A program made the translations under genes and the position numbers. The notes beneath the pieces are model-generated. The model was not told where the DNA came from and did no database searches. It saw only the letters and a program-made list of their open reading frames with translations. This document shows, in pieces, positions 1 through 13,494 of a stretch of DNA of 64,000 nucleotides. How positions within the stretch are numbered: position 1 is the first letter of the stretch; every line of letters begins with the position of its first letter. Origin of the DNA: Escherichia phage vB_EcoM_ASO2A; the sequence record MZ726793.1. One strand, 5' to 3'.

Positions 1-26
1 GGGCGCACCAAGCGCCCTTTCTTTTT
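1..26 (+). terminator. Rho-independent terminator (GGGCGC-ACCAA-GCGCCC + T-run)
   Basis: GC hairpin followed by TTTCTTTTT; near-identical copies at 3983 and 5121. Confidence 0.6.
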
Positions 27-47
27 ACATGTAGAGGATAAACAAAA

Positions 48-233
48 ATGACTTTAAACGAGCTTAAAACAGCCTATAACGCAACATTAAAAATAGCCGT
101 GCGTTACCGTGACGAATACGGTTTTATTGCGCAGGGTGTGATCCTGGGCTTTTCTGACGATGGTTTGATCTATGTTGATGCACATCACAACAAGGTTAAA
201 CCTGAAAACGTCATTAGCATAAAATATCTTTAA
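48..233 (+). CDS. hypothetical protein
   Basis: 61-aa ORF; SD GAGGA upstream of ATG. Confidence 0.5.
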   Translation: MTLNELKTAYNATLKIAVRYRDEYGFIAQGVILGFSDDGLIYVDAHHNKVKPENVISIKYL

Positions 234-239
234 AAACGC

Positions 240-267
240 TTGACACCATAACCAGGTAGGATAAGAT
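240..267 (+). promoter_or_regulatory. sigma70-like early promoter with 5' hairpin
   Basis: TTGACA, 16-nt spacer, TAAGAT; then TAGGGCGG and hairpin 281-295. Confidence 0.55.
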
Positions 268-318
268 GTATCACATAGGGCGGGAATAGTTCCCGACCAC
301 ATAAAAGAGAAAAACATT

Positions 319-531
319 ATGACCACTATCACAACAAAACAAGAAAAAATTATTACAGACATTGCCGCAGTAGCCGCTATTGCTATTATCGGTACCTACT
401 ATGACACCGCGCGTCCTTCCTCCTTGCATGAGATCGCCGCCGTTGCATCAGTTGGCGTGCTGTTTTACGTTGGTAAACGTTATTTATCACCAATGATTAA
501 CAAGCTGACACCGTGGAAAAATAAAGGTTGA
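319..531 (+). CDS. hypothetical protein (hydrophobic)
   Basis: 70-aa ORF; A-rich RBS; hydrophobic stretch IAAVAAIAIIG. Confidence 0.5.
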   Translation: MTTITTKQEKIITDIAAVAAIAIIGTYYDTARPSSLHEIAAVASVGVLFYVGKRYLSPMINKLTPWKNKG

Positions 532-555
532 TCCTGTTTTACATTGTGTTATAGT
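528..555 (+). promoter_or_regulatory. sigma70-like early promoter with 5' hairpin
   Basis: TTGATC, 16 nt, TATAGT; TAGGGCGG; hairpin GCGGCA-ATGG-TGCCGC 567-582. Confidence 0.5.
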
Positions 556-602
556 TATCGTGTAGGGCGGCAATGGTGCCGCGCCCCTTTGAGGATGCAA
601 TC

Positions 603-887
603 ATGAGTAAAGCTAACACCGTGCTAATGTTTTCCCTGATTAATGATCCCGCTTACTTGTCCAACATGACGCAGGAGGGTAACACATTAACGGCAACATT
701 CACCAATAAGCTTGACCGAGTGATCATCATCTCACTGAAAACAGTTAGTAAAGGCTTTTACTCGTTAGCTTATCATTGGATCACTGATACCGACGAGACA
801 AGCCAGGACTATAGCGCCCCTTTCCCTGAATCAATGGCACGGGAGATCATCGCCGCCGTTGTAAATGATGGTTTGTTTACTGCATAA
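603..887 (+). CDS. hypothetical protein
   Basis: 94 aa; start moved from 573 to ATG 603 (SD GAGGA) because the 5' hairpin overlaps 573. Confidence 0.5.
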   Translation: MSKANTVLMFSLINDPAYLSNMTQEGNTLTATFTNKLDRVIIISLKTVSKGFYSLAYHWITDTDETSQDYSAPFPESMAREIIAAVVNDGLFTA

Positions 888-904
888 ATAATTTAGAAAA
901 AGGC

Positions 905-932
905 TTGCAATCATTTTGAGATAGTGTATATT
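905..932 (+). promoter_or_regulatory. sigma70-like early promoter with 5' hairpin
   Basis: TTGCAA, 16 nt, TATATT; TAGGGCGG; hairpin 949-961. Confidence 0.5.
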
Positions 933-984
933 TAATTCATAGGGCGGCGGGAATAGTTCCCAAAGCAAACGAGAGGATTACACG

Positions 985-1104
985 ATGAGCAAGTACACAG
1001 TAGAATACACGGTAGAGAATCCGGTAGTATCCGAAGGTAAAAAGATGACATTTGCCATCAGTATAATCGCTTTCGTTGTCACTATCTTATCAATCATCTT
1101 ATAA
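985..1104 (+). CDS. small membrane protein (39 aa)
   Basis: ORF below track cutoff; SD GAGAGGA; one hydrophobic helix. Confidence 0.45.
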   Translation: MSKYTVEYTVENPVVSEGKKMTFAISIIAFVVTILSIIL

Positions 1105-1114
1105 GGTGCACACC

Positions 1115-1276
1115 ATGAAAATAACAGACATTATCAAAGAGATCGCCCTTGCCGCTGGCGTTGAAGTCGAGGAAGTGATCGCGCTCAATCTTACAGAAAA
1201 CGATCTGCGCAACTATGAAGCGGAAAGCGTGAAAGCAAGCGGCGCGGTCCTGGCATATAATCCGGCTAACAAATAG
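1115..1276 (+). CDS. hypothetical protein
   Basis: 53 aa from internal ATG 1115 with SD AAGGTG (track ORF 1076..1276). Confidence 0.45.
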   Translation: MKITDIIKEIALAAGVEVEEVIALNLTENDLRNYEAESVKASGAVLAYNPANK

Positions 1277-1277
1277 T

Positions 1278-1305
1278 TTGACAAGCTGAATCAACCTGAT
1301 AAGAT
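1278..1305 (+). promoter_or_regulatory. sigma70-like early promoter with 5' hairpin
   Basis: TTGACA, 16 nt, TAAGAT; TAGGGGCG; hairpin GGGGCG-ACAAG-CGCCCC 1316-1332. Confidence 0.55.
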
Positions 1306-1356
1306 GTATCACATAGGGGCGACAAGCGCCCCGCCTAACAGAAGAGAGAAAAAATC

Positions 1357-1635
1357 ATGACCATCGTTAAATTAACAACCGAAGAAATGAAAACAATGTT
1401 AACCACTAATTTACAAAATTGGAAAATTGGTGTTGACGTTGAAACAGTGTGCAAGTTGAACGACAAACTAACACCGGACGACATTGAAACGATCATCCGT
1501 GCAGATTTCTATGATGCTTTATACGATGATTCCACAGTCCTTGAAACGATGTTGGATAACGCTTGGATCAATCCCGATTTGGCGGCTTATGGTCATCTTG
1601 CCTTTGAAGCCATCCATAATGTTTATAATCGTTAA
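1357..1635 (+). CDS. hypothetical protein
   Basis: 92-aa ORF; RBS GAGAGAAAAAATC-ATG. Confidence 0.55.
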   Translation: MTIVKLTTEEMKTMLTTNLQNWKIGVDVETVCKLNDKLTPDDIETIIRADFYDALYDDSTVLETMLDNAWINPDLAAYGHLAFEAIHNVYNR

Positions 1636-1645
1636 GGGGGATAAC

Positions 1646-1756
1646 ATGAATCCGAAAGATATGCAAGCATGGAAAGGGTACGACGATCTAAGCGCCTTGC
1701 GCAATAAGTCAAGCCGTAACTTTAGACGGTTGGAAGCAAAGAAAAAGAAAAAATAG
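1646..1756 (+). CDS. small basic protein (36 aa)
   Basis: SD AGGGGG 7 nt before ATG 1646; C-terminal part of track ORF 1484..1756. Confidence 0.4.
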   Translation: MNPKDMQAWKGYDDLSALRNKSSRNFRRLEAKKKKK

Positions 1757-1757
1757 T

Positions 1758-1785
1758 TTGACAAGTCCGCGTAGTCTGGTAATAT
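1758..1785 (+). promoter_or_regulatory. sigma70-like early promoter with 5' hairpin
   Basis: TTGACA, 16 nt, TAATAT; TAGGGCGG; hairpin 1798-1813. Confidence 0.55.
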
Positions 1786-1834
1786 GTATCTTGTAGGGCG
1801 GCAATGGTGCCGCTCACAAGAAGAGAGAAAAATC

Positions 1835-2119
1835 ATGAAAATTACAAAAAGCCTAACTAATTATGCAGCACGTCGCGGATTATGCTTAACCGTTGAAAAC
1901 TTAGGGAAAGAAGACTTTTTGTGTTTTTGGGAGCTTGAGAATGATTGCGAGTGGATGTTTTCTTATTCTATCTGCGAAGATCAAAACGGTTGTTTGTTAA
2001 CCTGGCGCGGTAATATCTATTTACCGGAAGAAATTAAAGAAGAGTTACCAGGTACGATCATGACAGAGAGACAGCTTAAAGAAGTGATCAATTTTGTAGG
2101 GCAAAACATTAAAAAATAA
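1835..2119 (+). CDS. hypothetical protein
   Basis: 94 aa from ATG 1835 downstream of the 5' hairpin. Confidence 0.5.
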   Translation: MKITKSLTNYAARRGLCLTVENLGKEDFLCFWELENDCEWMFSYSICEDQNGCLLTWRGNIYLPEEIKEELPGTIMTERQLKEVINFVGQNIKK

Positions 2120-2120
2120 T

Positions 2121-2149
2121 TTGACAGTAGGCAAACAACGTAGTAAAGT
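2121..2149 (+). promoter_or_regulatory. sigma70-like early promoter with 5' hairpin
   Basis: TTGACA, 17 nt, TAAAGT; TAGAGCGG; hairpin 2161-2182. Confidence 0.5.
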
Positions 2150-2204
2150 TTATTACATAGAGCGGCGGAATGGTCCACCGCTCACAACAGAAGAGAAACA
2201 AATC

Positions 2205-2375
2205 ATGATCCCGACTATGTTTTATGTATCGCGCAAAGGTCACAATATTTTTTGGTCTGAAGATTTAAATGAAGCTATGACGTTTGCCCATGATCGTGTT
2301 GCTATCGGTGGCGTTAACATCACTGTAACCGATGAAAACGGCATTGAATACTATAACGGCGACGATGAAGAATAA
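2205..2375 (+). CDS. hypothetical protein
   Basis: 56 aa from ATG 2205 downstream of the hairpin. Confidence 0.45.
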   Translation: MIPTMFYVSRKGHNIFWSEDLNEAMTFAHDRVAIGGVNITVTDENGIEYYNGDDEE

Positions 2376-2423
2376 TTAATGAGGCGGGGGGAGTATTCCC
2401 CGCCGTCAATAAAGAGGTAAATC

Positions 2424-2693
2424 ATGAAAATATCATTAGACGTTGCAATCAAGGCCATCGAATCCGGTTACATCCTGGTAAAAGATGATAAGGCTAAAAC
2501 CGTGCACCACGTTAACAAGGAAACAGGCGAAAGCATGATCACATATAAAGCCGCCTACTTTCTCCAATCAGTAGCAGATCCGCGCGTACAACGCCAGGTT
2601 ACAGCGGCTATTGCTAAAAAATTATGTGCTTTACAGGGCACAAGTTTTAACGAGATCGCCCCGTGTTTTGACTGGTCGAGCTTGAAAAAATAA
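2424..2693 (+). CDS. hypothetical protein
   Basis: 89-aa ORF; RBS AAGAGGTAAATC-ATG; GC hairpin 2383-2404 upstream. Confidence 0.55.
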   Translation: MKISLDVAIKAIESGYILVKDDKAKTVHHVNKETGESMITYKAAYFLQSVADPRVQRQVTAAIAKKLCALQGTSFNEIAPCFDWSSLKK

Positions 2694-2694
2694 T

Positions 2695-2722
2695 TTGACA
2701 ACAATTATAAATCGGGTAGAAT
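2695..2722 (+). promoter_or_regulatory. sigma70-like early promoter with 5' hairpin
   Basis: TTGACA, 16 nt, TAGAAT; TAGGGCGG; hairpin 2733-2756. Confidence 0.55.
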
Positions 2723-2774
2723 GTATTTCGTAGGGCGGGGCAATAAGGCAACGCCCATTAATGAGGGTAGAATC

Positions 2775-2879
2775 ATGTTAGAGAAAATTTTCACGGTCGT
2801 AGTAGTGGGCCTGGCGTTATCGGTTGGAGTGGTTGCAACTATGGCTAACATGATCCTATCTTCCCACGGTATTGGATAA
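2775..2879 (+). CDS. small membrane protein (34 aa)
   Basis: ORF below track cutoff; single hydrophobic helix. Confidence 0.45.
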   Translation: MLEKIFTVVVVGLALSVGVVATMANMILSSHGIG

Positions 2880-2889
2880 GGTGAATCAA

Positions 2890-3105
2890 ATGATCACGAA
2901 TAAGACAGGTAAAACAGAATTTTTACGCGCCTTGCAGATCGGCAAGCCTGAGATCTGGCATTGCACTAAATCCGCGCATAATGAAATGAAAGATTTTACC
3001 GCTACTTTACAACGTGTTAAAATATCTATCACACAGAAAAAAGCCTTGTTAGTAGTAGAAAACGAGATCCCGCAAACTATTATTATTGTCGAGCGTACAG
3101 CATGA
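2890..3105 (+). CDS. hypothetical protein
   Basis: 71 aa from ATG 2890 with SD AAGGTG. Confidence 0.5.
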   Translation: MITNKTGKTEFLRALQIGKPEIWHCTKSAHNEMKDFTATLQRVKISITQKKALLVVENEIPQTIIIVERTA

Positions 3106-3488
3106 AAACAGAAATCATTATTGAAATCATCAACGGTTATAAAGAAGCCTTTATTTTTGCTGAATCAGCAAGGGATCATGAAGGTAATTTTATTGATAAC
3201 TTAGACGATTATGATTTTTCTCCTAGCGCGGACGAACGGATCGCCCAGGATGTAACAGCCTTTATTAATGCTAATCTTGCCGCTATCTCTGAGGCAATGA
3301 GCGACGGCGCAACAGCCAACCAGATCGGGAATGATTTACATTTTACCCGTAACGGTCACGGCGCAGGCTTTTGGGATCGCCCTGAAATATACACCACTAA
3401 CACGGCGAACCGCCTAACCAATGCAGCTAAGTTTATGCCGAACGTGTCGGCTTACATTGGTGAAGATAATTTGATTTATATTGAATAA
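3102..3488 (+). CDS. hypothetical protein
   Basis: 128-aa ORF; ATGA start/stop overlap with upstream gene. Confidence 0.55.
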   Translation: MKTEIIIEIINGYKEAFIFAESARDHEGNFIDNLDDYDFSPSADERIAQDVTAFINANLAAISEAMSDGATANQIGNDLHFTRNGHGAGFWDRPEIYTTNTANRLTNAAKFMPNVSAYIGEDNLIYIE

Positions 3489-3494
3489 AAAGTA

Positions 3495-3522
3495 TTGACA
3501 CCGATCCCCAATATGGTACTAT
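3495..3522 (+). promoter_or_regulatory. sigma70-like early promoter with 5' hairpin
   Basis: TTGACA, 16 nt, TACTAT; TAGGCGGG; hairpin 3533-3553. Confidence 0.55.
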
Positions 3523-3576
3523 TTACCACGTAGGCGGGAAATGGTTTCCCGCCAGGTAATCAAAAAGGTAAATACT

Positions 3577-3966
3577 ATGCGCAACCTGGTTTCTGTTTCT
3601 AACGTTGAAAAATTTCAATCTTTACAGGGTATCGTTAACAACGTAGCGCCTTTTTTAGTCAACGGCTTGATTGCAAAGATGAAAAATAAACATCATGCGG
3701 CATGGTCTGCTTACTGCTTTGATAATGATGAAAAAGCGGCTGAAATGATGCTAAATATGCTGTTAGACAGTGTAGAATCATCTTTACCGGAAAACATCGC
3801 AGAAGAGATCACCTATCGTTATAATATGGCGATCACTTACCAGGAGGTTGCGCAATTTAATATGATGGACGATGACGAACAACAGGATCAGGAAATGTTT
3901 TGGGAGTATGCTGATCGTCAATCGGCTTTTGATGAAAAATTAGCGATGTATTATAACGAATATTAA
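3577..3966 (+). CDS. hypothetical protein
   Basis: 129 aa from ATG 3577 downstream of the hairpin. Confidence 0.55.
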   Translation: MRNLVSVSNVEKFQSLQGIVNNVAPFLVNGLIAKMKNKHHAAWSAYCFDNDEKAAEMMLNMLLDSVESSLPENIAEEITYRYNMAITYQEVAQFNMMDDDEQQDQEMFWEYADRQSAFDEKLAMYYNEY

Positions 3967-3982
3967 TACACGGTAAAAGAAA

Positions 3983-4006
3983 GGGGCGCACTAAGCGCCC
4001 TTTTTT
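3983..4006 (+). terminator. Rho-independent terminator
   Basis: GGGCGC-ACTAA-GCGCCC followed by TTTTTT. Confidence 0.65.
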
Positions 4007-4351
4007 GTATTCTTTTTTCACGATGGAAACAACACGTAAAGAATAGGCGTAAAGGTGGCGTAAAACCATCTAAAACCGACTGTAACCGCTTAAACAAGGT
4101 AGGAATGATTAATCACCTTACCAGGATGAAAAAGCCGTTATAAAGCTATCTAGAGCGTTTAAAGCACATAGGAAATAATTTGCTTTTTATCTTGCCTTTT
4201 ACCCTGCTTTTGATTATTATTATGGAACGGGCGGCACCTGGAAGCAGGGGAAGATAATCACCGGAAGACCCCGCTATATATTGATAGCTAACATCTATCA
4301 AACAACAAAACATCAAAGAGATAAACTATCAAATCTTTACAATCCTACCTA

Positions 4352-4380
4352 TTGACACCGGATCACGCTTACATTATCAT
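4352..4380 (+). promoter_or_regulatory. sigma70-like early promoter with 5' hairpin
   Basis: TTGACA, 17 nt, TATCAT; TAGGGCGG; hairpin 4392-4410. Confidence 0.55.
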
Positions 4381-4428
4381 TTATCACGTAGGGCGGGAAT
4401 GTTTCCCGCCTGATTTAGGAGTCATATC

Positions 4429-4662
4429 ATGATCGAACAAATTAAAAGCACTAAACCAAATGTTAACGGTAATGTTTCTCACTTTATCGGGGATAATGAA
4501 AGAGGTACACCGTACGCCGCCGTAACCGTTCAACCGAACGGGGATTATTGGTTTACCGTGTACGGATCTTACTCTTTTGGACGTTCGGCACATGATAAGA
4601 TCTTGCAAGTGGTTAAGCCTACTGGGAAGAATATCACAGCAGAAAAATTTTATAAAAAATAA
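4429..4662 (+). CDS. hypothetical protein
   Basis: 77-aa ORF; SD AGGAG 7 nt upstream. Confidence 0.55.
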   Translation: MIEQIKSTKPNVNGNVSHFIGDNERGTPYAAVTVQPNGDYWFTVYGSYSFGRSAHDKILQVVKPTGKNITAEKFYKK

Positions 4663-4663
4663 C

Positions 4664-4692
4664 TTGCTTTATAGCTCCTGTTAACTTATAGT
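4664..4692 (+). promoter_or_regulatory. sigma70-like early promoter
   Basis: TTGCTT, 17 nt, TATAGT; TAGGGCGA downstream. Confidence 0.45.
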
Positions 4693-4741
4693 TATTGCGT
4701 AGGGCGAGCAATACAGCAAGCCCACAAAGAGGAAAATAAAA

Positions 4742-5110
4742 ATGAGCAAATCAGCAATTAAAGCACTTGAAAAAGCACAAGAAGTGATCGCAACGTCAAC
4801 CACTGGCGCAAAGGTTAATCTTGTTGGTTATCTGACAGATGAAACTATCCGTAAAAATTGGCGTAATGCTGATTTACTGGCTTGCTTATTGATTAATAGT
4901 GTCGCTAATGCTTTCCAGTGCGAAACAGCCGAGAGCCTGGAGGAAAACTTGTTTGATAATATGGATCAAGCCATTGAAACCTATATACAATCAAACATGG
5001 ATAGCTGGAACAGTAAAACATGGCCCGACAATTTACGCGATACAACTGATCAACTGATCCGCCTTGCCCTGATGGTTGAACGCGATAACGTTCACAACCG
5101 CACAAAGTAA
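4742..5110 (+). CDS. hypothetical protein
   Basis: 122-aa ORF; RBS AAGAGGAAAATAAAA-ATG. Confidence 0.55.
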   Translation: MSKSAIKALEKAQEVIATSTTGAKVNLVGYLTDETIRKNWRNADLLACLLINSVANAFQCETAESLEENLFDNMDQAIETYIQSNMDSWNSKTWPDNLRDTTDQLIRLALMVERDNVHNRTK

Positions 5111-5120
5111 GATTATACAA

Positions 5121-5148
5121 GGGGCGCACTAAGCGCCCTTTCTTTTTG
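5121..5148 (+). terminator. Rho-independent terminator
   Basis: GGGCGC-ACTAA-GCGCCC followed by TTTCTTTTT. Confidence 0.65.
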
Positions 5149-6659
5149 CCTAAATAATGTTGATAGATTCCGCCTATGGAAAACCGACACAGAACAAAAC
5201 TGAATAAATAGCGGTATCGAGCTAATCAACCATTAAACGAATAACCATACCTCCCAGGGTAACAGGCTGTTAGAGAGCCATTTAGAGCGGTTAAAATCGA
5301 TCAACAACCAACAACAAACCATCAAAAACACCCTTTTACCTCCTTTCTAGTGCAATGATAACCATTATCATCTATCCATGTTTATCTATGCAATATAAGT
5401 GCATAACTATAATGTTGATAATAGTTCGCAACAACTAACTAACCAACAACCTAAAACAATAAGCAAACTAATCATAATCAAAGGAATAATAGCAAGATGA
5501 TTGATAACGACAAACAATCAAACTATGATGAATACTAAGCAAGATAACGATAATACGACAAAACAACCAACTAACGAACAATAACAAACGAAACCATTAA
5601 AATAATAACTATTAGCAAAATAGTGCCTGAATGAAATCATTACAAAACGAATCATTCACAGGATCATCATTAGCACGCTATGCCGGACACATAGCGAGCT
5701 AATAATAAGCCAACTACACCCCAACAATCATAACCATCGGTGATGGTTATTTCTTGTTACTGCGTAGCTTGCAATAATTGCAAGCGTAATACGCTTACAC
5801 TTATTGCGCTGGCTTATTATTAGCATTATATGTAATTACCAAGATCATAACATTAGCGCAATAACAATAATCATTGTGGTAATTACAAGATGAAATCATT
5901 AGCAAGATGAATAATTGCACGTAGCAACATGAGCGAATAGCGACAGGTTGCATAGTGTGCACATAGATGTACACGCAGTGTATAAACATACAAGAAAATA
6001 AAGGCTAATCTTTCGGGGGCGAATACTATCGCGTAGCGATATGTTGAGCATCTTCTCTTAAACGTAAATAAAATCAGAAAATTCTTGATTTATTTTAGTT
6101 TTTATGTTAATAAACGTTTAAATAATAATCATTCTCATATAAATAATAGTCTGCTTGTCATGAGCGGGATCAGTTGACAATGTTCCGTCATATGATGAAG
6201 TTGCCAAACCATTGATAAATAAGTGTTTGTGTGATTTATAATCAAGTGGCCCACCTTGTCGCTATGTTGGCATGAGCCTTGCATAAGTCCTTGAATACGA
6301 ATGATAATTATTCTCATTCTCATGATATTTGGGAATTGTCGCTGCGTGGACCTGACGGCCCGAAAATTCGCGTTAAGCACTTCTTACGTATGCGCCATGA
6401 TTTTTGCCATATGATATTGATTCTATTAGATATTCTTGCCATGATTGCCATGAAACAGGGTGTCCCGAAATAATCTCTCCCCGTAGATATTTTGGGTTAC
6501 TTTTTATACAAGAGTGGGGTGTCAAAAATAATCGGTATATATGGGATAATTGATAGGAATCCCCTATGATAATTCGATTGTAATTCCCTGAGATTGATCG
6601 TATGATGTTGGTGATTGATGATTGCCATGAAAGATGGCTAACGATGAGAGGAGATTATC
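5141..6659. repeat. 1.5 kb non-coding A-rich region with short direct repeats
   Basis: No ORF with RBS; top strand A-rich and G-poor; repeated ATTAGCAAGATGA, GATTGCCATGAAA and ATCATTCTCAT motifs. Confidence 0.5.
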
Positions 6660-7034
6660 ATGCAAGAGAGTAAAAATGTTCCGTTGAGTAGTGCAACATT
6701 GCTTCGCTTCTATAAAGCATGGATTGCCAACTATCCTGCAATGAATCGCACAACGAGTGGCTTATGTGGTTGTCTGGTGGATTATGTAGATGATTTTGTT
6801 GGTGAGACAACTAGAGAAGAAGATAGAAAATGGCGGGATAGTTTGTTGGACCGTTTGAAATATGAAATGAGGAAACAATTTACATGTGCAGGGCTGGACT
6901 ACAATCTTCCGTTCAATGCAGATTGCATGGATTACCTTTCAGAGTGTATAAACTTGGCGTGTCATACCAACACGTTACGTCTTCAATGGGTGAAAGACAG
7001 AATTGAAGATGCAAATAATGCTTGCATTGAATAA
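6660..7034 (+). CDS. hypothetical protein, paralog family A (GLC...WVKDR)
   Basis: 124 aa; SD GAGGAG; shares FY..W, GLCxxL, PF and R.xWVKDR motifs with five other ORFs. Confidence 0.6.
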   Translation: MQESKNVPLSSATLLRFYKAWIANYPAMNRTTSGLCGCLVDYVDDFVGETTREEDRKWRDSLLDRLKYEMRKQFTCAGLDYNLPFNADCMDYLSECINLACHTNTLRLQWVKDRIEDANNACIE

Positions 7035-7093
7035 AGATGTTTGTATAATGGTTTGCATACCGCGCATAACAGATAGCCAATGAGGAGATTGAA

Positions 7094-7303
7094 ATGTCAA
7101 ATATGAAAACTGTATCCTTGTATTTAGCTAACACTGATCGTGTGCACACCCTTGCTAACGCAAGTCGTGTACTCGTGCAGTTTCGAAACTTCGCACCGTC
7201 CGTTGTGACAGGTAGTGAAACGTGTGTTATCGATTTCATTAACGAATACTTCCGAGGGAATCCGGTTGGTCGTTATTTCATTAAGGGTCTGAAGGATGCA
7301 TAA
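7094..7303 (+). CDS. hypothetical protein
   Basis: 69-aa ORF; SD GAGGAG. Confidence 0.55.
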   Translation: MSNMKTVSLYLANTDRVHTLANASRVLVQFRNFAPSVVTGSETCVIDFINEYFRGNPVGRYFIKGLKDA

Positions 7304-7304
7304 T

Positions 7305-7526
7305 ATGAAACGCATGAAAATTCGTATTGAGAATGATGGTGGTTATAAAGGATTGGCACATGCAAAATTTCCACTTGTGCTGGAAGCTACGGTGGAATAC
7401 AGTGGGCTTGCTCATGTGCGATTCTCGAAGATGATGGAAGTGCAGGAATGGTTTTGGGACGAGATAGATGCACGAGAAGGAGAAGATTATGTTTTCTTTC
7501 CTCACGAATATGAAATTGTCTATTAA
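7305..7526 (+). CDS. hypothetical protein, paralog family B
   Basis: 73 aa; SD AAGGA; C-terminal EW..W..EG.DYVFF shared with 11243..11464. Confidence 0.55.
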   Translation: MKRMKIRIENDGGYKGLAHAKFPLVLEATVEYSGLAHVRFSKMMEVQEWFWDEIDAREGEDYVFFPHEYEIVY

Positions 7527-7538
7527 AGGTTGTGTGCA

Positions 7539-7778
7539 ATGATCACACCACAGCAAAACGAAGCAGCAATGGATCTTCTTGATAGTTTGTATTTCGATAA
7601 TTGGTATTCTGAATGTGAATGGATGAATATGCAAACTCTGAAAGAGAAGACAAAAGCGTTGATTACAGTAGATCAATTTCTTGCAGAGACGGAAAGAATG
7701 AATTATGATATGGCATCTCGCGCACGACGCGTTTCCATTTTCAATAAAATGTTAGCATTATGGGGAGGTAGAAAATGA
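7539..7778 (+). CDS. hypothetical protein
   Basis: 79 aa from ATG 7539. Confidence 0.5.
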   Translation: MITPQQNEAAMDLLDSLYFDNWYSECEWMNMQTLKEKTKALITVDQFLAETERMNYDMASRARRVSIFNKMLALWGGRK

Positions 7779-8236
7779 GACAATTCACTATACTGGCAGC
7801 TTATGTGCAATGTGTTCACGATTATGTTAGTGCTCATACAGGTTTGCTGGAAGTTAATAGTAAAATTGAAGGCAATATGGGTACTGTCTATGTGCAACAT
7901 ACTTTATCCAATGTGCCGTTTAAAGTGTTCACTGTTGTAGCTGCCGATTACAATCGTGTAGATGTACGTTTCTTGGATCATAATTTTCGTAACGCACTAG
8001 ATAATATCGAAGATTATCTTCCCGTGAAACCTTTGTCATTTCCACCAAGTCGTGCAAATAATGTAGTGACAAACCTTAATGAAAGGAATGTGGCTATGCA
8101 CAAAAAAGTCCGTCAACTGAAAACGCTGATGGAAATGCAAGAAGAGATTGAAAAAGAACTAAAAGAAGATTTTGGTATGCTTCCAAAAGACGCTTTGAAA
8201 TGGTATGATGAACTAAGAGGAGAAAGTTATGAATAA
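7775..8236 (+). CDS. hypothetical protein
   Basis: 153-aa ORF; SD GGAGG; overlaps neighbours by 4 and 8 nt. Confidence 0.55.
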   Translation: MRQFTILAAYVQCVHDYVSAHTGLLEVNSKIEGNMGTVYVQHTLSNVPFKVFTVVAADYNRVDVRFLDHNFRNALDNIEDYLPVKPLSFPPSRANNVVTNLNERNVAMHKKVRQLKTLMEMQEEIEKELKEDFGMLPKDALKWYDELRGESYE

Positions 8237-8423
8237 AGGAACTACTGTATATTTAGTAACAAAGAATACCCCAGGCTGGAGCCAATGCAGCACTGTCCCT
8301 TACAAGATCTGTGCAACATTAGAACTAGCACAACGTGCAGAAGCAGAAGTGGATGCCATGCAATACAGCTATGGTGAGATCATTCCTTTTACTCTTGAAC
8401 AAGAAGGAGCATACAATGTTTAA
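8229..8423 (+). CDS. hypothetical protein (tandem paralog D)
   Basis: 64 aa; SD AGAGGAG; shares a W.VV...F.S.EEA motif with the C-termini of the next two ORFs. Confidence 0.55.
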   Translation: MNKGTTVYLVTKNTPGWSQCSTVPYKICATLELAQRAEAEVDAMQYSYGEIIPFTLEQEGAYNV

Positions 8424-8871
8424 AGTAGGGATTACTTATAAATTCAAAAGCGTTGCTGACCAAGGAGATATGGCAACACATGACAAAGCAAATATTGCTG
8501 TTTGCCAAGCGATTGGAAACGAAGTTTTCAAAGTTATGAATACAGATGATAAGTATGGTCATGTTCTTGAGTTTTATATCAATGGTACCCTCTATACAGC
8601 AGGTGTTACCCCAGGGTTTAATTCGTATACTTATTTGATTGATAACGAAGAATTTAAATATTTTGAAGAAGTAAAGGAGGAAACAATGGGTAAAGCAGAA
8701 CCACAATGGCATGTTGTGATCGTAGGATCAGAGTGTGTAGATGTTTGTTCTAGTTTTGAAAAAGCTTCTGAAGTAGCTACAAAAGCTAAGAAGGATTATC
8801 CGTCGAAGACGGTTGAGATTTACGCTCGTGTTGCAGTAGCAAACGCCACAATCACTATTGATAAGGAGTAA
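8416..8871 (+). CDS. hypothetical protein (tandem paralog D)
   Basis: 151 aa from ATG 8416; N-terminal MFKVG..Y.FK shared with neighbours. Confidence 0.55.
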   Translation: MFKVGITYKFKSVADQGDMATHDKANIAVCQAIGNEVFKVMNTDDKYGHVLEFYINGTLYTAGVTPGFNSYTYLIDNEEFKYFEEVKEETMGKAEPQWHVVIVGSECVDVCSSFEKASEVATKAKKDYPSKTVEIYARVAVANATITIDKE

Positions 8872-8876
8872 AGCCA

Positions 8877-9332
8877 ATGTTCAAAGAAGGTCATGTCTAC
8901 CGTTTCCAGGATGAAGATTATATGCGACTATATTCTACCTTTGATAACAGTATTGCGGCTATCATCGGAGAGAATTTTTTCGAGGTGTTGAGCACTGATG
9001 CAAATGGTAATATCTTGTCAATTGTTGTGATAGGGAGAGACGGTATTATCACTGCTAGTGATGGGGATCGTTACATAATCAATTCTGCTCATATAGATTA
9101 TTTTGTTGACGGTGGTATTCGTGGTGGTCGTGGAAAACCCCAAGAAGAACCTGTTGATACAACAAAAGAAGAGTGGTATGTTGTAATGACTGATGACACC
9201 TGTATTTCTGGGTTTGAAAGTTATGAAGAAGCTTTGAAAGAGGCAGCAGAGCATAAAATGTCTAATCCTACAGAAGAGGTTGAAGTTTATAAACGTTTGG
9301 TTGTTGCTACCATCGGCGTATCTTTTGTTTAA
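8877..9332 (+). CDS. hypothetical protein (tandem paralog D)
   Basis: 151-aa ORF; SD AAGGAG. Confidence 0.55.
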   Translation: MFKEGHVYRFQDEDYMRLYSTFDNSIAAIIGENFFEVLSTDANGNILSIVVIGRDGIITASDGDRYIINSAHIDYFVDGGIRGGRGKPQEEPVDTTKEEWYVVMTDDTCISGFESYEEALKEAAEHKMSNPTEEVEVYKRLVVATIGVSFV

Positions 9333-9344
9333 AAGGGGAATGTT

Positions 9345-9782
9345 ATGTTTAAAGTTAATGCTGTTTATTGTTTCAAAAGTAAAGCTGCCTGTGAAGCTTT
9401 CTCTATGATCTCTGATGAAAATTTCAAAATGGCAGCTTTGATTGAAGGGTCTTGTTTCCGCGTCGAGGATGTTAGTGAATCAGGGTCTGTTTGCTCATTG
9501 ATTTTATTGGACAGCGGGGATATTATTGAAGCTGGACAGTATCCGTTCAGAAGTTGGGAGATATTGTTAGCTCGCGGAGAGCGTAACTTTTTTATGTGCG
9601 TGTCTGCGGGGGAAGTTGTGAAAGAAACTAAGGATGTTTCTGTTTACAATTCTGAATTTATAAGTTATAGTGAGTATCAACATCTGGAAGGCATTGTTGG
9701 TCACTTGTTATCTCTGATTGACATTGAATGTGACCTGCCTGAATCATTGAAAGAAGAGTTGAAAGCATTAGATTTGTTATAA
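9345..9782 (+). CDS. hypothetical protein (tandem paralog D)
   Basis: 145-aa ORF; N-terminal MFKVNAVYCFK. Confidence 0.55.
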   Translation: MFKVNAVYCFKSKAACEAFSMISDENFKMAALIEGSCFRVEDVSESGSVCSLILLDSGDIIEAGQYPFRSWEILLARGERNFFMCVSAGEVVKETKDVSVYNSEFISYSEYQHLEGIVGHLLSLIDIECDLPESLKEELKALDLL

Positions 9783-9809
9783 TGTTTCGCACAACGAAAG
9801 GAGAATAAG

Positions 9810-10109
9810 ATGAATCTGACCGAACAGTTACGCCGTATTGCAAAAGAAGCTTCCTTCAACTTCCCTGTTGAAGAAGTGATCGAGACATGTTTTGCTGAAG
9901 CACGAGCGGGGAATTCTTCAAGAAATTTCACACCATCTGATTTTGGTCTGGATAATTCCCCTACCCACCCAGGGGCGATCTACAATCAGGTGAAGTGGAT
10001 GGATGAAGCAGTAGCAATTCTTCGTGAGCGTGGGCTTATTGTTTATAAAGAAATGGATCTGAACGGGGCATACGAGTGGATCACTATTGATTGGTCCGAG
10101 GTGAAATGA
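9810..10109 (+). CDS. hypothetical protein
   Basis: 99-aa ORF; SD AAGGAG. Confidence 0.55.
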   Translation: MNLTEQLRRIAKEASFNFPVEEVIETCFAEARAGNSSRNFTPSDFGLDNSPTHPGAIYNQVKWMDEAVAILRERGLIVYKEMDLNGAYEWITIDWSEVK

Positions 10110-10342
10110 TGAAAGGTAACAAGATGAAAGTTAATCAAGTGCCGAGCGCATACACTTTGTGGCTTGCGCGAGCGTTACACCAGACGATCAAAGACCCTAA
10201 GAAGCCAATGAAGAGTGGGAAGAAGTTTATGTCTAAGGGCAAAACAACCTTTGGCTTCACTCGTATGTCTGTTAAGATGAAAAGGCTGGGGTACAAGCCA
10301 AACTACGCTCGTTACCCTTCTGAATACAACTGGTTTGACTAA
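10106..10342 (+). CDS. hypothetical basic protein
   Basis: 78 aa, lysine-rich; SD GAGGTG. Confidence 0.5.
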   Translation: MMKGNKMKVNQVPSAYTLWLARALHQTIKDPKKPMKSGKKFMSKGKTTFGFTRMSVKMKRLGYKPNYARYPSEYNWFD

Positions 10343-10355
10343 AAGGAGAAAGACT

Positions 10356-10532
10356 ATGGCTACTTTTCAACAACTGAAAGATGTTTCACGTTTAGTAAGA
10401 AAAATCCGAGAAGCAGACGCTGCTGTGCGGAATGCATTAACGCCAGCAGAGCGTGAAGATCTTGAAGAGGAGGTGAAAACAGCCGAGAATGCTTTTGCTG
10501 TGTATCTTTCAACACTGTATACAGGAGGTTAA
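10356..10532 (+). CDS. hypothetical protein
   Basis: 58 aa from ATG 10356; SD AAGGAG. Confidence 0.5.
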   Translation: MATFQQLKDVSRLVRKIREADAAVRNALTPAEREDLEEEVKTAENAFAVYLSTLYTGG

Positions 10533-10847
10533 ATGTCAGAAGAACTTAAAGAATTTTATCAAGCATATCATAACTGGCTGTTAGCTGGTGCTCCTGATAA
10601 TAATCCTTTCTGGCATGATAAAGGATTATGTAGTTGCCTCTACCTTTGGACTGGAGGTTATGATGATCTAAATTATGAAATGCAAATGCAATTCCGTGAG
10701 GCAGGATTGTCTGAAGAATACCCGTTTGATGACGGAGACTGGTTTAAATATGATTTTGCACAAAGAAACGGGCTGCTACATTTGAATGCTGCCCGTATAA
10801 AATGGGTAAAAGATCATGCTACACAGGAGGATGTGCAATGCCAATAG
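10533..10847 (+). CDS. hypothetical protein, paralog family A
   Basis: 104 aa; family A motifs (FY..W, GLC, PF, RIKWVKDH). Confidence 0.6.
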   Translation: MSEELKEFYQAYHNWLLAGAPDNNPFWHDKGLCSCLYLWTGGYDDLNYEMQMQFREAGLSEEYPFDDGDWFKYDFAQRNGLLHLNAARIKWVKDHATQEDVQCQ

Positions 10848-11038
10848 TGTTTAGTTTCTTGGTGATTGTTATGGTTGTTCTTTTCGCGGCATGGCTTTGG
10901 GATTTTGACCCAGGAGCAGCGCAGCAAAGAGCTACAGACTGGAAAGAACAATGTATTGTGCTCAAACATGAACGAAATGCGGAGAAATTTCTTGACCTGG
11001 AGTGTGATCGCCTTGTAAGATACAAGCAAGATAAATAA
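10838..11038 (+). CDS. small membrane protein
   Basis: 66 aa from ATG 10838; SD AGGAGG; one TM helix. Confidence 0.5.
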   Translation: MPIVFSFLVIVMVVLFAAWLWDFDPGAAQQRATDWKEQCIVLKHERNAEKFLDLECDRLVRYKQDK

Positions 11039-11052
11039 CCTTGAGGTGCAAA

Positions 11053-11241
11053 ATGGTAATTGAGATTAAACTTGAATATGCTGGGGCTGTTGCCCTGATC
11101 GCACAAATGTTGGGAGCAAAGATTGAAGAAGTGTGTATCAATGCCTGGAGTGTAGAGATTAATGTTCCTATGGATAACATTGCTAATCGCTTGCTGGTAG
11201 CAGAGTGTGAACGCACCAACATAATCTACAAAGGAGCATAA
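11053..11241 (+). CDS. hypothetical protein
   Basis: 62 aa; SD GAGGTG. Confidence 0.5.
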   Translation: MVIEIKLEYAGAVALIAQMLGAKIEEVCINAWSVEINVPMDNIANRLLVAECERTNIIYKGA

Positions 11242-11242
11242 T

Positions 11243-11464
11243 ATGAAAATTAGAGTTTGTGATGTATTGGGTTATGTTGGTTTTGAGAATGTTCAGATTC
11301 CTTTTGTTGTTGAAGCACATCTTGTTAGCGATGACATGACAACATTCTTTGTTACGATAGAAGAAATGTCCAAAGTTGAGGGATGGGAGTGGTTTGAAGA
11401 AGATGTTTGGGAAGGTTGTGATTACGTATTTTTCTCTGACGAAGTGAATATTCTTGCGGAGTAG
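11243..11464 (+). CDS. hypothetical protein, paralog family B
   Basis: 73 aa; SD AAAGGAG; C-terminal motif shared with 7305..7526. Confidence 0.55.
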   Translation: MKIRVCDVLGYVGFENVQIPFVVEAHLVSDDMTTFFVTIEEMSKVEGWEWFEEDVWEGCDYVFFSDEVNILAE

Positions 11465-11466
11465 GT

Positions 11467-11673
11467 ATGTCTTGTTTTACAAAAGCAGTGTCCATATGTA
11501 AGAAACAATATGAAAGTGATTACGGAATATTTAATATTCCAGTAGATCATACAGAGTATTGTTCATGTGGTGGCAGAATGAAGAAAACAGTGATTTATGC
11601 GGATAATGGAGATGAACTTGTTCCGGTTGTGGTTTGCAAAGCTTGTCATTCTGTTAAAACATTAAAAGCGTAA
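11467..11673 (+). CDS. putative zinc-ribbon protein
   Basis: 68 aa with CSCGG...CKAC cysteine pairs. Confidence 0.5.
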   Translation: MSCFTKAVSICKKQYESDYGIFNIPVDHTEYCSCGGRMKKTVIYADNGDELVPVVVCKACHSVKTLKA

Positions 11674-11768
11674 GGAGTCGGGACACCCGACGATTGGAGC
11701 TAAAAATTTTGCGTACAACCCTTTCCGCCCAACAGGGGCGCGTCGGGTAAGTAAAGAGGAGAGTTTAT

Positions 11769-12167
11769 ATGAAAAAGATCATCGTAGGTTTCTTGTTACT
11801 CATTGCATCACTTGGAACAGCAAATGCGTCTCAAGTTTATGAGTGTGTGTCAGATGTGGTTGTTAAAAATCTGAAAGGTGAAGTGATTTCTGGTCCTAAG
11901 AAAATGGCTTCTGTTGTCATTAATAAAGATAACTCCTTTATCCTTAAAAATTCAGGTGGTGCTTTGATGAGTGGCATTCTGCAATACACAGGAGAAAAAA
12001 GTAAAGATGGTAGTGCTATGTATGGTTCACAACAGTTTATTGGCACTACTGAAGTTGTGATGATGCGCACAGAGTATCGAGACACTTTAGCTTGGTTTGC
12101 ATTTCTAAAAAATGATAAAACAATAACGAATGTTCTTACTCTAGAAGCTGATTGTACGCAACGATAA
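11769..12167 (+). CDS. secreted protein with signal peptide
   Basis: 132 aa; N-terminal MKKIIVGFLLLIASLGTANA; SD AGAGGAG. Confidence 0.6.
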   Translation: MKKIIVGFLLLIASLGTANASQVYECVSDVVVKNLKGEVISGPKKMASVVINKDNSFILKNSGGALMSGILQYTGEKSKDGSAMYGSQQFIGTTEVVMMRTEYRDTLAWFAFLKNDKTITNVLTLEADCTQR

Positions 12168-12177
12168 GGGGGGATTT

Positions 12178-12633
12178 ATGACTAAAATGAGACATTACGC
12201 TGTAAACTGCAACGATGCTTGGCGTTTGTGTCCTGATGATCCGACAGAAGGCACATTTGTAAGATATGAGGATTATAAAGAGTTATCGGATGCTGTAATC
12301 GCATTGTTAACTGATATCCGTTCACGTTATCCAGGACAAGATTTCACTTGCCCTCACATCAAACTTCTTGCTTGCCTGGTAGAAGGTGAGAAAGAAGTGG
12401 AAGATGGCTTCAAGCGTGTAGAGTATCAAGGTGAAACTTTAGATGTTCCTGAATTTGTTAATTATATTGCAACAGATTCAAGTGGCGAGCGTTATGGTTA
12501 CACTCATAAACCGGAGATTCCAGATTTCGCTTATGCGTGGCGTATTCCTTATGAAGTTTTTAATGTTGCAGATTGCTGGTATTTAGGAGAAGGAAACAAC
12601 CTTAATTGGCGTGATTCCTTGTTTCAGGTTTAA
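12178..12633 (+). CDS. hypothetical protein
   Basis: 151-aa ORF; SD GGGGGG. Confidence 0.55.
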   Translation: MTKMRHYAVNCNDAWRLCPDDPTEGTFVRYEDYKELSDAVIALLTDIRSRYPGQDFTCPHIKLLACLVEGEKEVEDGFKRVEYQGETLDVPEFVNYIATDSSGERYGYTHKPEIPDFAYAWRIPYEVFNVADCWYLGEGNNLNWRDSLFQV

Positions 12634-12637
12634 CAAT

Positions 12638-12901
12638 ATGAAAGAGACATTGCCAGCAGCATACCGTTTGAATGATGAACGTATTTGGGAGTGGACCGAC
12701 GTTTCTTGTTTTTACCCTGAAATAGTTCAATATTGGCGAGCAAAAGGGTGTGTTGTAGTTATCAACCCATGTGGACCAGTCGATGAAGATTGCTTGTATC
12801 TCGATGGAAAGTGGCACAGTTATTGTCGCTGGCCTTTTGAGTGGATGTGTAAAGAAGATCTCCCAGAGGGTTGGGAGTATCCAAAAGCAAATAGGAGATA
12901 A
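12638..12901 (+). CDS. hypothetical protein
   Basis: 87 aa from internal ATG; weak RBS. Confidence 0.4.
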   Translation: MKETLPAAYRLNDERIWEWTDVSCFYPEIVQYWRAKGCVVVINPCGPVDEDCLYLDGKWHSYCRWPFEWMCKEDLPEGWEYPKANRR

Positions 12902-12902
12902 T

Positions 12903-13265
12903 ATGTCTAAAGATTTTGTTGAAATGTTTGTCAAAGATGAAGAAACTGGTTTAGGCACAGGTTTCATTTGTGAAGAAACCTTTAAACGTGAACAAGAAAA
13001 AGCTATTCTTATGCGAAACTATGATCACGCATTAGAACAATGGAAAAATGCAGAACAAAAATGCAAAAACCTTTATGCAGAAAATAGAAAACTACAAGAT
13101 CAAATGGAGTTGTTAGCTATCAGTTTACGATCTCTCATTTTGGCTGTAGAAGATGGTTTTAAAAATCCAGATGGTTTTCCTGTGAGCGATATTGAACATG
13201 ATTTGTATCTTGCTCGTGGTGCTTACTTCTATGTTAAACAGAAGTCTGTAGAAGGAGAGAAGTGA
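12903..13265 (+). CDS. hypothetical protein
   Basis: 120 aa from ATG 12903; SD AGGAG. Confidence 0.5.
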   Translation: MSKDFVEMFVKDEETGLGTGFICEETFKREQEKAILMRNYDHALEQWKNAEQKCKNLYAENRKLQDQMELLAISLRSLILAVEDGFKNPDGFPVSDIEHDLYLARGAYFYVKQKSVEGEK

Positions 13266-13462: not shown

Positions 13463-13465
13463 ACC

Positions 13466-13494
13466 TTGACATTTATTTTATGTATGGTATACAT
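13466..13494 (+). promoter_or_regulatory. sigma70-like promoter overlapped by a palindrome
   Basis: TTGACA, 17 nt, ATACAT; inverted repeat ATGTATG-GTATA-CATACAT across the -10. Confidence 0.45.

Follow-up and report, generated by a model that had tools for sequence, protein, structure and literature searches.

Emory, Bouvet and Belasco are said to have found in 1992 that the ompA stem-loop, lying within about 2-4 nt of the 5' end, stabilizes Escherichia coli mRNA, and in 1996 Mertens et al. reportedly described the T7 gene 10 leader as an mRNA stabilizer. RNases E and G favor 5'-monophosphate ends, and RppH, which generates these ends, triggers decay (PMC3014915). Another described element, the PeSL, combines a sigma-70 promoter with a G/C stem-loop and precedes ORFans in hyperplastic regions of T4-type phages; PeSLs promote and terminate transcription in reporters, flank insertions and deletions and form mini-circles (PMC2839356; PMC4122927), and five placements of the stem-loop have been described for them (Arbiol et al., 2010, PMC2839356). 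Here, we analyze a stretch of 64,000 nucleotides from Escherichia phage vB_EcoM_ASO2A (sequence record MZ726793.1), the whole of which is called the window below, and describe a repeated module of about 80 bp, one ahead of each small gene, in which a GC-rich hairpin follows a sigma-70-type promoter at the predicted 5' end of the transcript. Both halves of this arrangement, composite promoter/stem-loop cassettes and 5' hairpin stabilizers, are known, and it is not a new principle but a lineage-specific variant of a known phage design.

As in the case of PeSLs, the module is a repeated combination of promoter and stem-loop with an AT-rich upstream tract, it lies in a variable region among small genes of unknown function, and close relatives differ by insertions and deletions with junctions inside the modules. 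In contrast to PeSLs, the hairpin described here is always located downstream of the predicted start, in the unit's own 5' leader, and carries a conserved start motif and a conserved apex, whereas in RB49, which we inspected, the stem-loops are found between -35 and -10 (TTGACAGGGGATCACCGATCCCCTATAAT) or over the -10 element and thus outside the unit's own transcript. Measured against the PeSL definition, a promoter with AT-rich tract, an adjacent G/C stem-loop and an ORFan region with junctions are present, whereas a stem-loop placed in or around the promoter and sequence relatedness to the RB49/phi1 motifs are absent. The lineages differ as well, namely Stephanstirmvirinae, rV5-like and 121Q-like phages in the present case and Straboviridae in the case of PeSLs. 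When a covariance model of the hairpin (see below) was run on positions 100-135 kb of RB49, no PeSL was matched and the hits were terminator-like sites on the opposite strand only, and a BLAST search with a whole unit gave no Krischvirus match. The two modules therefore appear to share their logic, not their anatomy or sequence. The product of the open reading frame (ORF) at 1835-2119 is 49% identical over its full length to that of RB49 ORF194 (locus L038, 18314-18586), a PeSL-flanked ORFan studied by Arbiol et al., and because of this match the same cargo gene seems to stand behind a different regulatory module in each lineage.

The repeats themselves have been annotated before. In the phAPEC8 record JX561091, features labeled 'putative host dependent promoter' on the basis of MEME cover the sigma-70 part of the units, and 20-mers at 556-575, 937-956, 1787-1806 and 3202-3221, labeled 'putative promoter determined with PHIRE', actually consist of TAGGGCGG and the 5' arm of the hairpin. 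The same repeats were thus read as two promoter classes, and the hairpin, the composite layout, the spread of the module and its role in recombination are unmentioned there. A literature search found no paper describing the composite module or its hairpin.

A co-oriented array of promoter and hairpin units

Reading of the DNA and pattern scans revealed ten co-oriented units, all on the + strand, in the stretch 240-4723, with -35 elements starting at positions 240, 528, 905, 1278, 1758, 2121, 2695, 3495, 4352 and 4664. Each unit presents, in this order, an A-tract, the -35 element, a spacer, a -10 element, a gap of 7-8 nt, a pyrimidine-purine followed by the start motif TAGGGCGG or a variant of it, and a GC-rich hairpin. 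An earlier sequence-only reading had proposed ten or more such units with TTGACA, a spacer of 16-17 nt, TAnnAT as -10 element, a conserved start motif and a GC stem behind it. The number of units was borne out, as were the spacer (16 nt in seven units and 17 nt in three) and the stem, which folds in each unit with 5-10 bp. TTGACA is perfect in seven of the ten units and replaced by the weaker TTGATC, TTGCAA and TTGCTT in the other three. TAnnAT describes six of the ten -10 elements and is too narrow as a general form, since TAnnnT fits all of them. Similarly, the start region is shared by all units only as TAG, always preceded by pyrimidine-purine and located 7-8 nt past the -10 element, whereas TAGGGCGG is exact in six units and the remaining ones carry TAGGGGCG, TAGAGCGG, TAGGCGGG or TAGGGCGA.

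The six exact occurrences of TAGGGCGG compare with 0.40 expected, a number of six being reached in none of 100 shuffles, and the composite pattern TTGACA-N16/17-TANNNT-N7/8-TAGRSSG gave six matches versus 0.00 expected (100 shuffles). A relaxed unit scan of the 64-kb window gave no match on the - strand and, outside of the cassette stretch, two weak look-alikes and the promoter of a tRNA-Gly gene, nothing more. The hairpin model, run over the 64 kb, scored well only between 275 and 4414. These results confirm that the cassette array is real; it greatly exceeds what chance would give and occupies a single 4.5-kb stretch of one strand.

A set of 97 distinct units was collected from 17 loci (six Phapecoctavirus loci, phi92 and several IMG/VR contigs). 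Their consensus reads A-rich tract, TTGACA, spacer, TAnnnT, gTAtcACa, TAGGGCGG, hairpin and A-rich tail, with ATG about 50 nt past the -10 element; an AAAAAA tract lies upstream of -35, and the spacer measures 16 nt in 68 of the 97 units. Information content is highest at TTGACA and at T, A and T of the -10 element and the spacer is uninformative. As would be expected for sigma-70 promoters, both hexamers are thus conserved across copies at a spacing of 16-18 nt while the spacer sequence varies.

In E. coli, RNA polymerase usually initiates at a purine that follows a pyrimidine and lies 7 (6-9) nt past the -10 element. Since every unit offers a pyrimidine-purine at this distance, the start is predicted at the purine before TAG, which results in predicted 5' untranslated regions of 41-48 nt. 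The stem begins at a fixed distance of 10-12 nt after the -10 element. When the predicted leaders were folded, the first paired nucleotide was position 4 in most window units and the region from -15 to +5 around AUG was mostly unpaired (mean probability 0.47-0.87).

Like Rho-independent terminators, the unit hairpins are intergenic and have a GC-rich stem of 5-10 bp with a short loop. However, such terminators need a run of T after the stem, whereas the unit hairpins have an A-rich tail, no more than two of the 8 nt behind the stem being T in 84 of the 97 distinct units (more than two in 13), and they follow a promoter, not the end of a gene. A terminator scan of the window lists none of the ten units. 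Canonical intrinsic terminators, all on the + strand, are located at the ends of the arrays instead: at 1-17, where GGGCGCACCAAGCGCCC and a T-tract close an upstream array beyond the window; at 3978-4006, where 12 pairs and a T-tract close the array of units 1-8; and at 5119-5141, where the same repeated sequence closes the array of units 9-10. The three copies (1-26, 3978-4014 and 5119-5150) are nearly identical, GGGCGCAC(C/T)AAGCGCCC followed by a T-tract, and the terminator is itself a repeated module. Because T-tracts are missing from the units and canonical terminators stand at the array ends, the unit hairpins are probably not intrinsic terminators. The earlier claim that they are leader structures rather than terminators stands, being consistent with the fixed distance to the -10 element, the lack of T-tracts, the presence of real terminators elsewhere and the conservation of the hairpin, not of the letters of TAGGGCGG, in phi92, rV5 and 121Q; the unit hairpin is thus best regarded as a putative 5'-leader element.

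Conservation and exchange of the module

The unit hairpins fold with free energies (ΔG) from -7.8 to -16.7 kcal/mol, and z-scores relative to dinucleotide shuffles range from -2.4 to -4.9 in eight units and are weak in the units at 528 (-0.5) and 905 (-0.8). As a MAFFT alignment of 45 units put the 3' arms out of register, alignments were obtained with a covariance model instead, which was built from a gapless seed of 12 hairpin sequences and run unfiltered over the 64 kb. In a model-fitted alignment of 145 hits (76 distinct), in which some palindromes are also read on the antisense strand, 96.5% of the cells are paired, compared with 78.3% in shuffled and 38-69% in slid versions. Similarly, 96.6% of the cells are paired in the 50 distinct sense rows, compared with 77.3% after shuffling (maximum 82.4%). 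Changes on both sides occur in six of nine pairs of the model-fitted alignment, so that sequence changes in the stem are compensatory, and there are at least 33 different contiguous stems. Loops are far less varied: 48 of 76 are ATGG, TAG, TGG or ATAG, and in RNA the hairpin apex usually reads AAURGU. When both strands of 87 distinct hairpins were folded to minimum free energy (MFE), the sense strand was more stable in 59 and the antisense strand in 26. A scan of positions 1-7000 of the window against Rfam 15 at a permissive threshold gave one sub-threshold chance match (18.8 bits versus a gathering score of 37.8).

In two pairs of orthologous hairpins the apex is flipped (GGTGGAATAGCCCACC versus GGTGGGCTATTCCACC; GGCAATAGTGCC versus GGCACTATTGCC). 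The inverted part comprises the loop and the inner stem, as seen in GGAATAGCC versus GGCTATTCC (L034 15621 and L021 626) and in GCAATAGTGC versus GCACTATTGC (L005 1486 and L021 325). Such inversions appear to be a mark that inverted repeats leave in the DNA, and the apex can evidently occur in either orientation.

The first 5.4 kb of the window match about 220 phage records. At the top, with 95-96% identity, are E. coli myoviruses of 150 kb that belong to the genus Phapecoctavirus, such as ESCO37, Mt1B1_P17 and tuntematon, and the window can be assigned by this similarity to a phAPEC8-like myovirus (Phapecoctavirus); one 89-nt unit is 100% identical to phAPEC8 when the whole unit is used in BLAST. 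However, the best Phapecoctavirus matches cover just 76-83%, split into 4-6 pieces, and close relatives therefore differ by blocks. Comparison of the window with six relatives located the block boundaries. At 1275/1637, a cassette of promoter, hairpin and ORF (1276-1636) is precisely present or absent. A replacement between 2430 and 2685 has its left edge at a promoter-less hairpin and the ATG belonging to it and its right edge in the A-tract of the next promoter, and a further deletion in one relative (L005) has its boundaries at 2879/3097, neither edge being inside a unit. At 3545-3579/4191-4208, homology extends through the unit-8 promoter up to TTACCACGTAGG and is followed by a different hairpin and different genes. 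In Anhysbys and SKA64 (L004, L005), the boundaries at 4395/4689 define a chimeric unit in which the unit-9 promoter is joined to the unit-10 hairpin and leader; the crossover lies inside CGTAGGGCG and ORF 4429-4662 is missing. This chimeric unit is direct evidence for unit-by-unit exchange. Like morons or integron cassettes, the units carry a small gene with its own expression signals that is gained or lost as a whole (cassette 1276-1636), but in contrast to integron cassettes they have no integrase or attC-type site and exchange apparently proceeds via short homology between modules.

The phages phi92, rV5 and 121Q, the last of them a jumbo phage, also have the module in front of small genes of unknown function; in these phages, hairpin and position are kept while the letters of TAGGGCGG drift. 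In phi92, which belongs to a different genus, the motif is replaced by TAAGG, AAAGCGGG, GAGAGCGGG or CAAGGCGGTGG, and units read CATAAGGCGGGAAATGGTTTCCCGCC, TTAAAGCGGGAATTGTTCCCGCTT, GAGAGCGGGAATAGTTCCCGCCTC, CAAGGCGGTGGAATAGCCCACCGCCT, etc., with the hairpin retained at the same place and TAGGG drifting. The early genes of rV5, a member of a different subfamily, have sigma-70 promoters followed by acaGGCGGGAAaacTTCCCGCC, aaaGGGGGGCaacaaGCCCC, caaGGGGCAAgacgTTTGCCCC and similar sequences, without TAGGGCGG; the region (- strand, 17000-26000 of locus L035, which is rV5 90000-137947) contains several promoter-less intergenic hairpins too. Only some of these early promoters are annotated in the rV5 GenBank record. 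BLAST of one unit gave 27-nt matches in 350-kb jumbo phages of the genus Asteriusvirus, and eight records of Asteriusvirus size besides 121Q share the same match. 121Q itself harbors a 16-kb array of small genes (about 500-15000 of locus L039, 140000-170000), each behind a unit of the form TTGACA/TTGCAA-17-TATAAT-agtttaCATCAA-GGGGAGAA-tag-TTCTCCCC-actaa, followed by a Shine-Dalgarno sequence and ATG, and the hairpin model gives about 14 sense-strand hits in this array. The 121Q unit CATCAAGGCAGGGGAATGGTTCCCCTCCTAAC is plainly homologous to the Phapecoctavirus unit CATCAAGGCGGCGGAATGGTCCACCGCCTAAC, with stem changes on both arms. In an exact-pattern scan of IMG/VR, only phAPEC8-like contigs (about 97-153 kb) gave hits in multiple copies, and single hits occurred at about the chance rate for 17 fixed bases. 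Two tandem copies of TTGACA-N17-TAC(T/C)CT-aaaggtgg-TAGGGCGGGGGCGGGTGGTG, 114 nt apart, in the 279-kb high-GC contig 3300001199_000001 (L009 12654-12812) were considered unrelated and are probably a coincidence of letters.

Proposed role of the leader hairpin and rival explanations

Of the two functions suggested in the sequence-only reading, stabilization of transcripts and binding of a regulator, we favor the first. We propose that each unit would by itself provide for early expression, being transcribed by the sigma-70 RNA polymerase of the host. About three unpaired nucleotides (R-U-A) would form the 5' end of the mRNA, with the GC-rich hairpin (5-10 bp) next to them; the Shine-Dalgarno sequence would then lie in an A-rich stretch free of structure, ahead of the start codon. 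In the RNA, the hairpin would act as a 5'-proximal protection that hinders 5'-end-dependent decay (RppH, RNase E/G), and it would leave the ribosome-binding site equally accessible for every small gene that is newly taken up. Where transcripts read through from upstream units and are cleaved in the AU-rich promoter region, the hairpin would head the protected downstream part. On the DNA level, the 80-bp module probably serves as a homology patch where cassettes are deleted, inserted and exchanged, as proposed for PeSLs. A protective leader is favored because RNases E/G and RppH act via the 5' end and because 5'-proximal hairpins such as those of ompA and T7 gene 10 stabilize mRNA. The units resemble these stabilizers in that a stable hairpin lies a few nucleotides from the (here predicted) 5' end and is followed by an accessible ribosome-binding site. 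They differ from the ompA type in being multi-copy (about ten copies in the window, and 13-24 hits per 10 kb when relatives were scanned), in being tied to one promoter type and in having a conserved apex. That the hairpin stabilizes and insulates early mRNAs, with the module doubling as a recombination joint, is the reading we prefer, and we give it about an even chance of being right.

Several observations do not sit easily with a protective leader. The apex AAURGU is conserved beyond what stability needs, and a specific partner might be the reason. For phi92 and 121Q units of the CATCAAGG type, 4-7 unpaired nt are predicted at the 5' end, a length at or beyond the limit of protection reported for ompA. 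Another hairpin, GGCGGGGGGA-GTAT-TCCCCGCC at 2383-2407 on the + strand, has no promoter of its own; it separates two co-transcribed ORFs, directly following the stop codon of the first and ending 17 nt upstream of ATG 2424, and its fold (ΔG -18.1, z -3.8) is also detected by the covariance model (15 bits). Its orthologue in relatives (L002 5376-5397) has a different stem, GGCGGGATTAATCCCGCC, and is still paired, so that a hairpin appears to be kept where a primary 5' end is impossible, although it could head a processed fragment because the sequence upstream is AU-rich. In the MFE strand comparison of the 87 hairpins, G.U pairs numbered 28 on the sense and 33 on the antisense strand, and in one class of hairpins a C.A is conserved on the sense strand. 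A recombination joint is supported by the positions of the junctions: when eight sequences were compared in every ordered pair, 51 of 192 junction coordinates lay within unit spans, which make up 11.3% of the sequence, and relative to the predicted start they clustered at -50 to -38 and at +1 to +21. However, this count is inflated as the same events are counted in several genomes, and the enrichment is confounded because viable insertions and deletions must be intergenic and intergenic DNA consists nearly entirely of units. Finally, a literature search, which did not cover the phi92 genome paper, found no transcriptome or start-site map for Phapecoctavirus, Stephanstirmvirinae or phi92.

A conserved apex would be expected if the hairpin RNA, or the palindromic DNA at +3 to +25, were bound by a phage or host factor that shuts off, times or boosts early genes by translational repression or as a roadblock at the start site. 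The letters of TAGGGCGG and particularly the apex AAT(A/G)GT are conserved beyond the need of pairing, the apex GAA-TRG-TTC recurs in the unrelated jumbo phage 121Q, and the position over the start site would suit an operator. However, at least eight different stem classes coexist in one genome, and for that reason a sequence-specific binder of double-stranded DNA is unlikely; orthologous hairpins with inverted apex exist, phi92 and rV5 units lose TAGGG, and the apex may be conserved simply because the paralogous units have a common origin and undergo gene conversion. A candidate for the binding protein did not emerge, and we consider a regulator site possible but clearly on the unlikely side. 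Somewhat less probable still is an attenuator of the PeSL type, in which the hairpin would dampen transcription arriving from upstream units and its presence in the unit's own transcript would be incidental. Arbiol et al. (2010) proposed this role after a stem-loop between promoter and lacZ had cut expression as strongly as rrnB T1 (PMC2839356). The co-orientation and tight packing of the units, with no T-tract terminator between them, would fit such a function, as would the hairpin after the stop codon at 2383-2407. Yet the hairpins have an A-rich tail and lack the T-tract, a canonical repeated terminator is already used at the array ends, and a hairpin downstream of its own start would attenuate its own promoter too; the RB49 stem-loops, between or over the promoter boxes, are unlike the units in this respect, and attenuation would not need fixed distances to the -10 element and to ATG.

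If the inverted repeat were kept only as DNA, for recombination and cassette shuffling, and had no role in RNA, recombinant junctions inside the TAGGG motif and the 5' arm, and the clustering of junctions at units, would be expected; the apex inversions are typical of inverted-repeat DNA dynamics, and the MFE comparison of strands shows no clear bias for the RNA strand. Homologous exchange, however, requires shared sequence and not a palindrome, and the position of the hairpin relative to the start and the ribosome-binding site is fixed across four phage lineages while its sequence changes in a compensatory way. The sense rows of the model alignment contain 30 G.U compared with 8 A.C or C.A, an excess that gives only moderate support as the rows are related, and a benefit that accrues only in the long term and to the lineage would be a weak force for the maintenance of about 20-30 copies per genome. 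We therefore regard a DNA-only element as improbable. Least credible of all is a phage-specific promoter, in which the 20-mer over TAGGGCGG and the 5' arm would serve a phage-directed polymerase or sigma factor. It is the reading implied by the PHIRE labels in JX561091, and we note that CACATAGGG superficially resembles the T7-type start CACTATAGGG. PHIRE, though, only reports over-represented 20-mers, 10 of the 11 copies in the window lie 7-8 nt downstream of a well-spaced sigma-70 promoter with A-tract, phi92 and rV5 conserve the sigma-70 promoter and not the letters of the motif, and no single-subunit RNA polymerase is annotated in the relatives inspected, among which no systematic search was made.

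Some further candidates were rejected. RNase III sites need about two helical turns, and stems of 5-10 bp are too short for them. An N4-type hairpin promoter, lambda nut/boxB and HK022 put antitermination do not fit a hairpin that follows a complete sigma-70 promoter, in one copy per gene and with no boxA-like partner, and no virion RNA polymerase is known from this phage group. Sites for IHF or CsrA gave no fit by eye.

Individual units and genomic setting

The units vary in the quality of their parts. Unit 1 (240-298) has TTGACA at 240-245, 16 nt, TAAGAT at 262-267, a predicted start at A275, TAGGGCGG at 276-283 and its hairpin at 279-298; it precedes ORF 319-531 and scores 28.6 bits with the covariance model. 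In unit 2 (528-585), the weak TTGATC is followed after 16 nt by TATAGT, by TAGGGCGG at 563-570 and by a hairpin with one bulge at 565-585 (ΔG -14.1, z -0.5, 10.1 bits), ahead of ORF 603-887. Unit 3 (905-966) also has a weak -35, TTGCAA, 16 nt before TATATT, with TAGGGCGG at 940-947 and a short core hairpin, GGGAA-TAG-TTCCC, at 949-961 (ΔG -7.8, z -0.8), and is followed by ORF 985-1104. Unit 4 (1278-1332), with TTGACA, 16 nt, TAAGAT, TAGGGGCG at 1314-1321, the hairpin GGGGCG-ACAAG-CGCCCC at 1316-1332 and ORF 1357-1635, belongs to the cassette 1276-1636 that is absent from three relatives. The most stable of the unit folds (ΔG -16.7, z -4.9) is found in unit 5 (1758-1819), where TTGACA, 16 nt and TAATAT precede TAGGGCGG at 1794-1801 and the hairpin GGGCGGCA-ATGG-TGCCGCTC at 1796-1815, which includes a G.U pair; ORF 1835-2119 follows. 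A conserved C.A mismatch characterizes the hairpin (2160-2183) of unit 6 (2121-2183), which has TTGACA, 17 nt, TAAAGT and TAGAGCGG at 2158-2165 and precedes ORF 2205-2375.

Unit 7 (2695-2756; TTGACA, 16 nt, TAGAAT, TAGGGCGG at 2731-2738) has a hairpin GGGCG...CGCCC at 2733-2756 with a large apical region and is followed by ORF 2775-2879. The highest score given here, 35.4 bits, belongs to unit 8 (3495-3553), with TTGACA, 16 nt, TACTAT, TAGGCGGG at 3531-3538 and the 9-bp hairpin GGCGGGAAA-TGG-TTTCCCGCC at 3533-3553, ahead of ORF 3577-3966. Similarly, unit 9 (4352-4411; TTGACA, 17 nt, TATCAT, TAGGGCGG at 4389-4396) has a 9-bp hairpin at 4391-4411, scores 31.8 bits and precedes ORF 4429-4662. Unit 10 (4664-4723), which has recombined with unit 9 in two relatives, consists of the weak TTGCTT at 4664-4669, 17 nt, TATAGT at 4687-4692, TAGGGCGA at 4700-4707 and a weak hairpin at 4702-4723, and is followed by ORF 4742-5110. 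In total, the cassette region contains 16 small ORFs on the + strand, and each of ten ORFs tested belongs to a PHROG of unknown function or has no family. In relatives, the array extends upstream of the position where the window starts. The ORF 48-233, directly after the terminator at 1-17, has no recognizable promoter or hairpin and would depend on read-through.

The sequence-only reading had also placed the shared start motif before tRNA-Gly. The promoter there (62474-62517, + strand) consists of TTGACA at 62474-62479, 18 nt, TATAGT, 7 nt and TAGGGCG at 62511, and the tRNA begins at G62515. The letters of the motif are thus present, but their GCG forms the first three bases of the acceptor stem, and because it belongs to the tRNA this site is not a copy of the hairpin. 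It can be read as a consensus promoter with the same predicted start region, 4-5 nt ahead of the tRNA, in which the acceptor stem would replace the hairpin. The tRNA cluster at 61157-63169 comprises ten genes (Met, Arg, Ser, Asn, Thr, Gly, Gln, Pro, Ile and Met).

Two stretches after terminators, 4007-4351 and 5145-6650, are without convincing ORFs. The latter, of about 1.5 kb, is in part 69-81% identical to non-coding phi92 DNA located ahead of the right terminal repeat of that phage, and a physical end of the genome may lie at these stretches. About 19 records of this phage group have been deposited as 'Campylobacter phage' with C. jejuni as host, and one as Acinetobacter phage; as they are about 95% identical to the coliphages, these host labels are likely mistaken.

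The most interesting loose end is the presence of the same module, down to the apex of the hairpin, in unrelated coliphage lineages. Tentatively, and with doubts that we consider substantial, one might think of a portable module shared horizontally among at least three unrelated lineages (Stephanstirmvirinae, rV5-like Vequintavirinae and the 350-kb Asteriusvirus), with an apex GAA-URG-UUC that would be read by a common host factor and a module that would set the fate of early mRNAs and permit integrase-free exchange of cassettes between phage families. Independently of that idea, the present analysis revises the database annotation, in which the motif figures as a 'PHIRE promoter' in its own right, and widens the PeSL idea, in which regulatory repeats are the joints of gene shuffling, from T4-type phages to several other coliphage lineages with a second anatomy. 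Should the leader hairpin indeed protect and standardize early messages, the module of about 80 bp, with its strong promoter, 5' stabilizer and open ribosome-binding site, would be a compact E. coli expression part for use in synthetic biology. For the phages themselves, such a function would account for their ability to take up small takeover genes by the dozen, unrelated as these are, and to express them simultaneously.

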